Assembly: GCA_016177405.1 (NCBI GenBank)
Contig: JACOVG010000009.1
Coordinates: 1 to 63,503, forward strand
DNA: 63,503 nucleotides
Direction: 5' to 3'
Source of the DNA: Candidatus Omnitrophota bacterium
GTDB lineage: Bacteria > Omnitrophota > Gorgyraeia > 1-14-0-20-64-10
Part shown: one piece after another, positions 24,836 through 27,102 of the stretch
How the letters are laid out: every line of letters begins with the position of its first letter
How positions within the stretch are numbered: the first letter of the stretch is position 1
Notes under the pieces: generated by a model
Seen by the model: only the letters and a program-made list of their open reading frames with translations
Database searches by the model: none
What the model was told of the DNA's origin: nothing
Position numbers and translations under genes: made by a program

Positions 24836-25498
24836 TTGCATATGAGCCTGTTCAAGTCAAGACAACGTGTAGCAGACCACGGGGAAGTGTTCACACCCCC
24901 GTGGATGGTCGAAGCGATGCTCGATCTCGTCAAAGGCGAGACCGAGCGAATTGACTCCCGCTTTTTGGAACCGGCGTGCGGGAGTGGGAATTTCCTTGTT
25001 CAGGTCCTGAAGCGCAAGCTCGCCGCAGTCGAGCTCAAGTTCGGGAAGTCCGACTTTGAAAAGCGGCACTACGCCCTTCTCGCTCTGATGTGCACTTACG
25101 GGATTGAGCTTTTGGCGGACAACATCGCCGAGTGCCGCGCGAATATGCTGGAGATCCTTGCCGAGTACCTGAATCTCGAAGAGTCGGGCGATCTGTATCG
25201 AGCGGCTTTCTATGTGCTGTCGCAGAACCTTGTCCACGGTGACGCCTTAACGATGCGCACCTGTGCTGGCCAGGCGATCACCTTCGCCGAATGGGGTTAC
25301 CTCGGTAAGGGGAAGTTCCAGCGACGTGATTTTCGCTTGGATGCCCTCACTCAAATGTCGGCCTTAAGTGAGCCGGGCACGCTCTTCGCGCATCTGGGCA
25401 AGCACGAGATTTTCACGCCGGATAAAAACTATCCGCCAATGACGGTGAGTGACCTTGCTAGCGCGGCAGTCAGTGATGTCCCGAGGGAATCCGTGTGA
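24836..25498 (+). CDS. methyltransferase-like protein A: intact SAM-binding motif I, no catalytic (D/N)PPY
   Basis: HGEVFTPPWMVEAMLDL and FLEPACGSGNFL (24968-24988). 220 aa with no NPPY/DPPY anywhere. GTGA overlap with the next ORF. Confidence 0.65.
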   Translation: MHMSLFKSRQRVADHGEVFTPPWMVEAMLDLVKGETERIDSRFLEPACGSGNFLVQVLKRKLAAVELKFGKSDFEKRHYALLALMCTYGIELLADNIAECRANMLEILAEYLNLEESGDLYRAAFYVLSQNLVHGDALTMRTCAGQAITFAEWGYLGKGKFQRRDFRLDALTQMSALSEPGTLFAHLGKHEIFTPDKNYPPMTVSDLASAAVSDVPRESV

Positions 25499-27102
25499 AC
25501 AAACAGGCGTCCTACACGCTCCGCAGTCATAACCCGGATGTCTTGACGTGCATCGCGAACCTTTCGAACGATGAGGTGTTTACGCCGCCTGAGTTCGCGA
25601 GCCGTATGCTGGACACGCTAGCAGAGGCGTGGGCGGGCGAGCACCGCGGCGCGAATATCTGGGCGGACAAGTCGGTAAGATTCCTTGATCCGTGCACCAA
25701 ATCGGGCGTGTTCCTGCGCGAGATCACAAGCCGTCTTGTCAAGGGTTTGGCCGATCAGATTCCGAACCTTGAGGATCGCGTCAATCACATCCTTACTAAG
25801 CAGGTGTTCGGTATCAGCATCACATATCTCACTAGCTTGCTAGCGCGGCGGAGTGTGTACTGCTCGAAGCACGCCCAAGGTGAGCACTCAATCGCCAAGT
25901 CGTTCGCGAGCGATGCGGGCAATATCTGGTTCGAGCGCACGAGCCATACGTGGTTGGATGACAAGTGCACCTACTGCGGCGCAAGCAGGAAGACCTTTGA
26001 CCGGGGTGAAGTTCTCGAAACCCATGCGTATGCGTTCATACACACTGACGAAATAAAGGCTCGGGTAGCTGAGCTGTTAGGAGGCGTGATGCAGTTCGAT
26101 GTGATCATCGGGAATCCACCATACCAATTGAACGATGGCGGCTATGGCACGAGCGCCGCGCCGATCTATCAGCTTTTCGTAGAAAAGGCCCTTGACCTCG
26201 ACCCGCGCTACGCAATCTTTGTGACACCTTCGCGGTGGATGGCTGGGGGCAAGGGTCTCGACAAGTACCGGGAGCGAATGCTCTCCGATAAGCGTCTACG
26301 AAATATTGTGGATTACCCGAAGCTCTATGAGGGTTTCCCTGGAGTAAAGATTCGCGGCGGCATCTCTTACTTCTTGTGGGATCGTGACCATCACGGCCCA
26401 TGCCAGATCCAAACAATTTGGGACGGTCAGCCGGCGGGGCCGGCGATCGCCCGCCACCTTAATGCATATGACATTCTCGTGCGACGCAATGAGGCCGTGC
26501 CTATCTTGGAGAAGGTTAGATCGAGGGGTGAGCAGACACTTGACTCGCGCGTGTCAAGCCGTAAACCTTTCGGACTGCCCACCAACTTTCACGGCAAGCC
26601 AGATTCGAAGGGTCTCAAGAAACCAGTGAAGCTCTTTGGCTCTCAAAAGATCAGCTGGGTAGAGCGATCGGAAATCATAGCGAACCCGGCATGGATTGAT
26701 AAATGGAAAGTACTCATGACGGCCGTGCAAGGAACGAGCGCGGCGGTCGAGACCAAGTTCCTCAGCAAACCAATTATTGCCGGACCTGGTACCGCATGTA
26801 CGGAAACCTACCTCGTCGCCGGCCACTTCAATGATAAGGAAACGGCGGTCAACTGCGCGAAATACCTGCGTACGCGTTTTCTGCGATTTCTAGTTTCCAT
26901 TCGGAAGGCCACGCAACACGCTACGCGCGACGTGTACTCCTTTGTGCCTGACTTGCCGATGAACCAGGAATGGACGGACGCTAAGCTTTACAAGCGATAC
27001 GGACTGACAAAGAACGAGATCGCTTTTGTCGAATCTCAGGTTGCGGAGCAGCGTGACGATACTCCTGACGAGGCGGTCTCCGATAATGGCGACGACGAAT
27101 AA
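25495..27102 (+). CDS. Eco57I-like N6-adenine methyltransferase B: NPPY present, degenerate motif I
   Basis: EVFTPPEFASRMLDTL. FLDPCTKSGVFL (25687-25707) where DPACGSG would be expected. VIIGNPPYQ (26113-26124). Confidence 0.7.
   Translation: MNKQASYTLRSHNPDVLTCIANLSNDEVFTPPEFASRMLDTLAEAWAGEHRGANIWADKSVRFLDPCTKSGVFLREITSRLVKGLADQIPNLEDRVNHILTKQVFGISITYLTSLLARRSVYCSKHAQGEHSIAKSFASDAGNIWFERTSHTWLDDKCTYCGASRKTFDRGEVLETHAYAFIHTDEIKARVAELLGGVMQFDVIIGNPPYQLNDGGYGTSAAPIYQLFVEKALDLDPRYAIFVTPSRWMAGGKGLDKYRERMLSDKRLRNIVDYPKLYEGFPGVKIRGGISYFLWDRDHHGPCQIQTIWDGQPAGPAIARHLNAYDILVRRNEAVPILEKVRSRGEQTLDSRVSSRKPFGLPTNFHGKPDSKGLKKPVKLFGSQKISWVERSEIIANPAWIDKWKVLMTAVQGTSAAVETKFLSKPIIAGPGTACTETYLVAGHFNDKETAVNCAKYLRTRFLRFLVSIRKATQHATRDVYSFVPDLPMNQEWTDAKLYKRYGLTKNEIAFVESQVAEQRDDTPDEAVSDNGDDE

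Follow-up and report, generated by a model that had tools for sequence, protein, structure and literature searches.

The window analysed here is a stretch of 63,503 nucleotides from a Candidatus Omnitrophota bacterium (GenBank assembly GCA_016177405.1, contig JACOVG010000009.1). It contains three overlapping open reading frames (ORFs), A, B and C, of which A and B probably encode a two-chain DNA methyltransferase inside a three-gene restriction system, a reading that we favor while leaving it a good measure of doubt. A is the predicted stand-alone half, N-terminal and binding S-adenosylmethionine (SAM), of a gamma-type N6-adenine DNA methyltransferase. The A-B-C cassette as a whole reads as a split relative of the Type ISP enzymes, a three-gene ATP-dependent restriction-modification cassette with predicted nuclease and translocation functions. 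An earlier sequence-only reading of the locus had described A and B as coupled methyltransferase-like genes with complementary motif loss. Every sequence detail in it (motifs, ORFs and the GTGA overlap) is correct; it missed the role of the conserved N-terminal half of B, the three-gene helicase-nuclease setting and the probable internal start at Met199 of B. The parts of the cassette, in window coordinates, are the following.

24842 to 25498, + strand: ORF A, 218 aa from ATG 24842 (the mechanical ORF begins at TTG 24836).
24968 to 24997, + strand: motif I of A, EPACGSGNFL, a canonical glycine loop, near-invariant in the A family.
25495 to 25498, + strand: GTGA, overlap of the A stop (TGA) and the B start (GTG), translational coupling.
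25495 to 27102, + strand: ORF B-long, 535 aa, with a degenerate N-terminal half, a catalytic half (from NPPY on) and a variable target-recognition domain (TRD).
25495 to 26088, + strand: N-module of B, aa 1-198, a paralogue of A's half by hhalign (Pfam Eco57I positions 1-69).
25687 to 25716, + strand: degenerate motif I of B, DPCTKSGVFL.
25861 to 25980, + strand: Cys/His cluster of B, residues 123-161.
26080 to 26084, + strand: internal Shine-Dalgarno (SD)-like GGAGG in B, 4 nt 5′ of the internal ATG 26089.
26089 to 27102, + strand: predicted B-short, 337 aa from Met199 ('MQFDVIIGNPPYQ'), catalytic half plus TRD.
26113 to 26124, + strand: NPPY of B, within IIGNPPYQ.
About 26272 to 27099, + strand: variable TRD of B.
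27086 to 29635, + strand: ORF C, about 849 aa from ATG 27086, nuclease domain plus superfamily 2 (SF2)/ResIII helicase, the predicted restriction/translocase subunit.
About 27155 to 27424, + strand: T5orf172/GIY-YIG-type nuclease domain of C.
From about 27467, + strand: SF2/ResIII helicase of C.

ORF A is taken to be 218 aa long because its homologues begin at the position of ATG 24842. It contains HGEVFTPPWMVEAML and EPACGSGNFL, and (D/N)PPY occurs nowhere in it. The motifs that can be recognized are X, I, II (YGIEL) and III (HGDAL), followed by a 'FAEWGY' beta-hairpin and a C-terminal tail, and the only Pfam matches are to the N-terminal part of the N6_Mtase/MmeI_Mtase profiles (aa 11-115). 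An AlphaFold2 (AF2) model of A from a 38-sequence alignment has a predicted local distance difference test score (pLDDT) of 88.7, with strands at residues 41-43, 85-89 and 130-134 (b1-b3), a hairpin at 147-165 and nothing matching b4-b7; 'FAEWGY' is modeled as a hairpin, and no motif IV lies there. Foldseek placed 100-150 residues of this model on the N-terminal parts of the adenine methyltransferase domains of BsaXI, CamA, LlaGI, LlaBIII, DrdV and BrxX, in partial matches with weak E-values. A sequence profile search of the PDB gave weak N-terminal matches only for A and no match for B.

The A family is large and strongly constrained. A search of 5.8 billion proteins returned at least 8000 homologues of A, and the best 120 matches are nearly all 218 aa long, with 82-92% identity, from Pirellulales, Vicinamibacterales, Gaiellales and Nodosilinea. 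In an exhaustive search of 50%-identity representatives (E≤1e-30) we found 318 A-family clusters, nearly all of 205-290 aa. Members as distant as 39% identity still have SKxRVxDHGEVFTP (motif X), EPACGxGNFL (motif I), YGIELLxDN (motif II, including its acidic residue), NIVHGDAL (motif III) and the F-x-E-W hairpin motif. The C-terminal tail of A, 'LFAHLGKHEIFTPDKNYPPMTV' (25379-25450, residues ~180-203; 'HEIFTP..YPPMTV'), echoes motif X (EIFTP). This tail is kept in split forms and absent from the fused phage forms described below, which are cut at 'LFA(H/D)L', and it may be a clamp on the partner that is specific to the two-chain state. We also considered A as an independent second methyltransferase and rejected this, as A is without a catalytic half and under strong constraint.

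ORF B has the complementary set of motifs. It contains NDEVFTPPEFASRML, DPCTKSGVFL and IIGNPPYQ, matches the full Pfam Eco57I domain (PF07669, 4.5e-36) as well as the PADLOC MTase_II and REase_MTase_IIG profiles, and has homologues of mostly 535 aa. Motif IV, (N/D)PP(Y/F/W) after strand b4, is present in B and absent from A. Profile-profile comparison of the family alignments bears out the earlier claim that A and B have paralogous N-termini: hhalign finds them homologous over motifs X to I with 93.5% probability across 49 columns. The resemblance of the N-module of B to A's half extends up to the junction, where 'ELFGGDM' of B corresponds to 'TLFAHLG' of A and to 'SLFADLM' of a fused protein (L114). 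The N-module has motif X (DEVFTPP), the motif I variant DPCTKSGVFL and a non-acidic motif II (FGISIT). All 54 aligned long-B genes have the Lys in the glycine loop (KSG), and in the same 54 genes motif II reads FGI(G/S/A)IT, with Gly, Ala or Ser in place of the ribose-binding acidic residue and never an acidic one. The complementary motif loss that the sequence-only reading had pointed out is consequently no product of chance or local decay, given these invariant replacements in B and the near-invariance of the A motifs down to 39% identity. The invariance of B's degenerate motifs indicates a fixed, selected feature, and the N-terminal half of B has probably lost SAM binding. The N-module also has an invariant Cys/His cluster (C123, H126, H131 and C158-x-x-C161) that A's half does not have; it looks like a zinc ribbon inserted in the degenerate half. 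Canonical motifs I and II do not occur in the same chain as motif IV in B; they do so only in the phage fused ORFs. The order X-I-II-III-IV followed by a C-terminal TRD is found across A plus B-short, as it is within the fused ORFs of L113 and L114.

The three genes travel together. We scanned one genome per species for ~186,000 representative bacterial and archaeal species and confirmed loci of the cassette in at least 542 species, from phyla that include Planctomycetota, Cyanobacteria, Proteobacteria, Nitrospirota, Chloroflexota, Acidobacteriota, Actinomycetota, Verrucomicrobiota, Bacteroidota and Firmicutes; the best 80 of these loci alone come from more than 10 phyla. B follows A in 72 of these 80, the remaining 8 contigs stopping ≤1.7 kb from A, and C follows B wherever the sequence allows. 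Seen from B, a full A-like gene lies directly 5′ of 56 of the 58 evaluable long-B genes, and the 2 exceptions have a broken A copy. The sequence-only reading had raised conservation of the A-B pair as a question, and the pair is indeed conserved in other genomes. The 4-bp overlap of A and B is also present in L001-L005, L094 and most viral loci. Among the 80 loci, identity to the window proteins is 73-84% for A and 65-91% for C (74-91% without matches shortened by contig ends). Identity to the window B is bimodal (~52-65% or 70-82%), with variability limited to residues 260-535. Column conservation in 20-aa blocks is 0.74-0.97 over B residues 1-260, so that the N-module matches A and C in conservation, and 0.43-0.66 over residues 260-535. 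With A and C conserved and the variation of B confined to its C-terminal 275 aa, B looks as expected for a specificity-bearing subunit between conserved partners.

About 15 loci have 0.5-2.5 kb between A and B, and most of the 16 gaps examined hold small ORFs, apparently accessory cassettes. By resemblance only, we take these to include a pair of 383 aa and 154 aa (ImmA-like and DUF4411-like; L014, L041, L049, L052, L079), a RhuM-like protein of ~270 aa (L070, L076), YhcG/DUF1016-like proteins (L010, L042, L083) and GxxExxY proteins. No relatives were confirmed in a metagenome scan that started from the divergent P0378. Two candidates were set aside: P0347 (530 aa) was rejected as an A-B fusion, its alignment being full of frameshift-like garbage from noisy read-through, and the short form P0451 (L176) was not counted, as its locus is decayed, with HicAB in A's place and C split in two.

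The same halves are also found separated and joined in other ways. In five lineages (L086-88, L090, L091, L092 and L112) an A-like gene is followed, with an overlap or gap of a few bases, by an Eco57I-type ORF of 328-347 aa. The A-like proteins are 39-45% identical to A in L086-88, L090, L091 and L092 and 72% identical in L112. Their short partners begin 'M(R/K/Q)FD(V/A)I(V/I)(G/S)N(P/T)P(Y/W)', precisely at strand b4 and motif IV, and the N-terminal half is wholly absent. Beside L091 and L112 we detected no C-type helicase gene; the contig of L086 covers adjoining genes only. Conversely, the A-type halves of L113 (80% identical to A) and L114 (66%) run in frame into a catalytic half, '...RRDFRFDILTQSAVGSDMQFDVIIGNPPYQ'. 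Such fused ORFs make up at least 7 clusters (L113, L114, P0391-394, P0420, P0433 and P0446) of 481-556 aa with Pfam N6_Mtase/MmeI_Mtase plus Eco57I matches. The fused forms are located in phage genomes; P0392 is close to a portal gene, and P0433, found on more than 24 contigs, lies just 5′ of a T7-like RNA polymerase, in the early region.

L177 to L179, about 3070 to 4705: phage single-chain fused methyltransferase.
L180, 4063 to 5562: phage single-chain fused methyltransferase.

Since a phage would not keep a dead orphan enzyme, an A-type half and a catalytic half presumably make one working methyltransferase, and the phage form is likely an anti-restriction methyltransferase aimed at the A-B-C family of systems. 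The sequence-only reading had supposed that a fused ORF with both motifs at homologous loci would imply a local disruption. Fused ORFs do exist; they are a small phage-borne minority and do not point to a local disruption here. The catalytic half and TRD of L113 are 82-87% identical to those of 527-aa long-B alleles and of 329-333-aa short forms, which indicates that the same specificity modules circulate among three architectures. Altogether, the A model with b1-b3, the partners that begin at b4/NPPY and the phage fusions describe two adjacent genes that each code for part of one methyltransferase fold.

On Firmicute plasmids the A-like gene precedes a single protein of 1446-1456 aa that has a nuclease-like N-terminus, a ResIII/SNF2 helicase and an Eco57I methyltransferase, and the motif I of this giant protein is itself degenerate, with a Lys ('INSKTG', 'LYAKSG').

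L093, 5986 to 11050: A-like gene and giant protein, Lactococcus cremoris pUC047A.
L095, 5992 to 11071: A-like gene and giant protein, Enterococcus faecium plasmid.

The Enterococcus copy adjoins a JAB/RadC-like gene on a conjugative plasmid.

B most likely encodes a second product. Met199 (ATG 26089) is invariant among the aligned long-B genes and lines up with the first Met of the short partners in L086, L090, L091, L092 and L112; in long-B genes with a canonical N-module it is replaced by nothing but GTG (L099, L138). The divergent L168 has AGG at this position and a different, much shorter N-extension. The nucleotides just upstream are constrained beyond the protein that they encode. The codon of Gly196 is GGA in 50 of 53 loci, compared with ~15% GGA on average at 19 further conserved Gly columns in this alignment, where mean GC content at third codon positions (GC3) is 0.66. 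Among 197 conserved columns, synonymous constraint is strongest at codons 196, 195 and 190, with codon 196 at the top (p ~1e-34, an absolute value inflated by the shared ancestry of the loci; the between-column comparison controls for this kinship). In 56 of 59 genome loci there is an SD-like 4-mer between -18 and -4 of the Met199 ATG, versus 10.8% of other codon positions. In a divergent clade (A 34-49% identical) the corresponding figures are 32 of 42 and 11.9%, and there the 4-mer is coded by Glu-Glu (GAGGAG), not Gly-Gly. The between-column comparison and the recurrence in a second clade with other codons point to selection on nucleotides. Internal translation initiation at Met199 would most likely yield a 337-aa free catalytic half able to pair with A.

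These observations suggest the following mechanism. A would supply strands b3-b2-b1 and the SAM pocket (motifs X, I, II and III), and B from Met199 would supply b4 (NPPY) to b7 and the TRD, the two halves assembling in trans at the b1/b4 seam of the Rossmann sheet to give an active methyltransferase. The internal ribosome-binding site and ATG at Met199 would release B-short for A, and A plus B-short would be the methylating complex. In B-long, the cis half would occupy the docking site of A and likely could not hold SAM, making the protein incompetent for methylation; B-long would instead recognize the site for the nuclease-helicase C, the part played by the methyltransferase-TRD unit in Type ISP. 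A single TRD gene would thereby direct modification and restriction to the same DNA site, and the exchange of one half of the Rossmann fold would keep 'mark self' apart from 'cut non-self'. The phage response would have been to join both working halves in an orphan methyltransferase that is made early in infection. The domain anatomy, the conservation, the linkage of the genes, the series of separated and fused forms and the synonymous constraint on the internal SD are observed; we infer that A associates physically with B, that the internal start is used, that B's own half has lost SAM binding and that B-long pairs with C. The full scheme, in which B makes two proteins with one TRD, the short one forming with A the only active methyltransferase and the long one reading for C, is put forward tentatively, and we would not be surprised to see it fail. 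The linkage of the genes (56 of 58 and 72 of 80 loci) suggests that both chains are required for activity. The sequence-only reading had proposed an obligate heteromer in which one chain, A, binds SAM and the other, B, is catalytic; its two-chain core is strongly supported by the comparative evidence, and 'obligate' stands as what this linkage suggests.

Several observations weigh against a two-chain methyltransferase, and some of them favor its main rival. According to this rival, B-long is self-sufficient, DPCTKSG is a working variant of motif I, and A is an accessory SAM-binding subunit that serves as a SAM sensor, as a restriction licensing factor or as a stabilising partner on the N-module of B, much as active methyltransferases are supported by inactive partners. 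The N-module is conserved to the same degree as A and C, with motif X and most of motif I kept; the fold of B-long looks complete, and B alone might bind SAM. M.TaqI has an Ala where B has the Lys of motif I, so the Lys substitution alone is not decisive on SAM binding by B. An AF2 model of B from a shallow 17-sequence alignment reached a pLDDT of only 36.9 and was discarded. For the internal start, the 4 nt between the SD-like element and the ATG is a short spacing, and the inflation of p-values mentioned above applies. The Enterococcus fused protein has a Leu, not a Met, before KFDVIIGNPPY; the internal start is thus not universal, and A must there work with a full-length partner. However, the short partners have no N-terminal half and occur at loci where no helicase was detected, which argues that the ancestral role of the A type was to complete the fold, not to regulate restriction. 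The acidic residue missing from motif II in all 54 genes also tells against a self-sufficient B, which leaves the constrained internal SD and ATG unexplained. We consider this rival unlikely, while taking it more seriously than any other.

A role for A in blocking or timing restriction, as an antitoxin-like factor or assembly inhibitor of B-C with no catalytic part, would suit a translationally coupled gene that comes first in its operon and, in the main clade, is strictly linked to B and C. Yet in L091 and L112 A-like genes accompany catalytic halves with no C-type gene detected, and in the phage fused forms A's half is part of the enzyme, making such a role highly improbable. That A is a pseudogene remnant of a methyltransferase disrupted by frameshift or insertion, as the fused single ORFs found elsewhere and the few broken A copies (L171/L172 = L219/L222) might suggest, is effectively refuted by its constant length of ~218 aa, an identity of 73-92% across phyla that exceeds that of B, the conserved overlap with B, the confident fold and the conserved split-specific C-terminal tail; the sequence-only reading was right to see in A no frameshifted pseudogene, as A is a conserved, folded and linked family.

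ORF C most likely begins at ATG 27086 (MATTNKPTIEEIL) rather than at the mechanical TTG 27026. From this ATG it shares 17 nt with the end of B (27086-27102), and with this overlap the whole A-B-C operon appears to be translationally coupled. C matches Pfam ResIII and, at 6.9e-08, T5orf172, with its N-terminus matching T5orf172/MUG113, and the RefSeq name of a homologue on a Rhizobium plasmid is 'GIY-YIG nuclease family protein'. On the PADLOC REase_MTase_IIG profile, which represents a 1359-aa fused 'Type IIG' enzyme, C corresponds to positions 158-800 and B to 992-1317. Otherwise, PADLOC and NCBIfam give generic or sub-threshold matches only for A-B-C.

The cassette is located in a predicted defence island whose other genes are the following.

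21476 to 21931 and 21921 to 22529, - strand: overlapping HEPN and nucleotidyltransferase (NTP_transf_2/Polbeta) genes, in the layout of a HEPN/MNT toxin-antitoxin module.
23047 to 24711, + strand: AbiP2-type reverse transcriptase, directly upstream of A (PADLOC AbiP2 9.4e-201; weaker Drt4 and Drt3b matches).
29821 to 30390, + strand: HD_4 domain protein, downstream of C.
30815 to 31720, + strand: HNH_2 endonuclease with a 200-aa N-terminal domain of unassigned type.
31851 to 34137, + strand: three ORFs (171, 221 and 255 aa) without a Pfam match.

The AbiP2-type reverse transcriptase is missing from related A-B-C loci and is therefore a separate neighbour in the island. The HD_4 and HNH_2 genes and the three unmatched ORFs downstream of C may be further defence genes. 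No tRNA was found near the island.

Existing annotation of the A-B-C parts goes no further than 'N-6 DNA methylase', 'Eco57I domain protein' and 'GIY-YIG nuclease', and annotation pipelines would take the cassette for two methyltransferases and a nuclease. If the two-chain model is true, this is a natural adenine methyltransferase split at the seam between SAM binding and catalysis, which would be useful for split-enzyme engineering and for correct methylome prediction. The model of long and short B, if true, would add a new way to share one specificity domain between modifying and cutting complexes, and the phage fused versions are a ready-made counter-defence pair for tests in laboratory strains. 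In the literature searched we found no description of a half-methyltransferase partner, a degenerate cis half, an internal start or the three-gene system. The cassette thus appears to be widespread but undescribed in that literature, with the half-methyltransferase partner, the degenerate cis half and the internal start of B as its new features.

Among known systems, the Type ISP enzymes LlaGI and LlaBIII share the most logic with A-B-C: a nuclease, an SF2 translocase, a gamma-type adenine methyltransferase and a C-terminal TRD. The linkage of an SF2 helicase-like ATPase to a gamma-methyltransferase and TRD is spread over C and B in A-B-C. Foldseek puts A's half among the LlaGI and LlaBIII methyltransferase domains, and C precedes B along the PADLOC profile of the fused enzyme. 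Type ISP enzymes are single-chain proteins with an Mrr-type nuclease and an unsplit methyltransferase (PMC3874165). A-B-C, in contrast, consists of three genes, encoding a methyltransferase half, a methyltransferase plus TRD and a nuclease-helicase. Its nuclease is of the T5orf172/GIY-YIG type, whereas that of Type ISP is an N-terminal Mrr-like PD-(D/E)xK domain, and its methyltransferase is split, with an extra degenerate half. We found no sequence match to the solved Type ISP chains.

The DnmA(YeeA)-YeeB-YeeC operon of Bacillus subtilis and Vibrio crassostreae, found in defence islands, encodes an adenine methyltransferase together with an SF2 helicase and a T5orf172/GIY-YIG protein (PMC9973331). 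It shares this content of adenine methyltransferase, helicase and T5orf172 with A-B-C. However, DnmA is a single-chain MmeI-like methyltransferase for which no half-methyltransferase partner is described, whereas A-B takes two genes, and its helicase and T5orf172 are separate proteins, where in C they are fused.

Type I systems (HsdM/HsdS/HsdR) resemble A-B-C in having conserved M-like and R-like subunits next to a variable specificity gene, and in the small defence or toxin-antitoxin cassettes that are inserted between genes of hsd loci. They also use one specificity determinant for their modification and restriction complexes, as we infer for A-B-C. Unlike Type I, which has a separate two-TRD HsdS, the A-B-C operon has no such gene, the TRD being the C-terminus of B, and the nuclease of C differs from that of the Type I R subunit.

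Methyltransferases in which one fold comes from two genes are known from M.AquI and the alpha and beta chains of M.EcoHK31I, Type II C5-cytosine enzymes whose genes are adjacent or overlapping and whose products must associate. A-B differs from them in being of the N6-adenine type and in being split between motifs III and IV. It is also coupled to a helicase-nuclease, and its catalytic chain, unlike theirs, retains in cis a degenerate version of the missing half.

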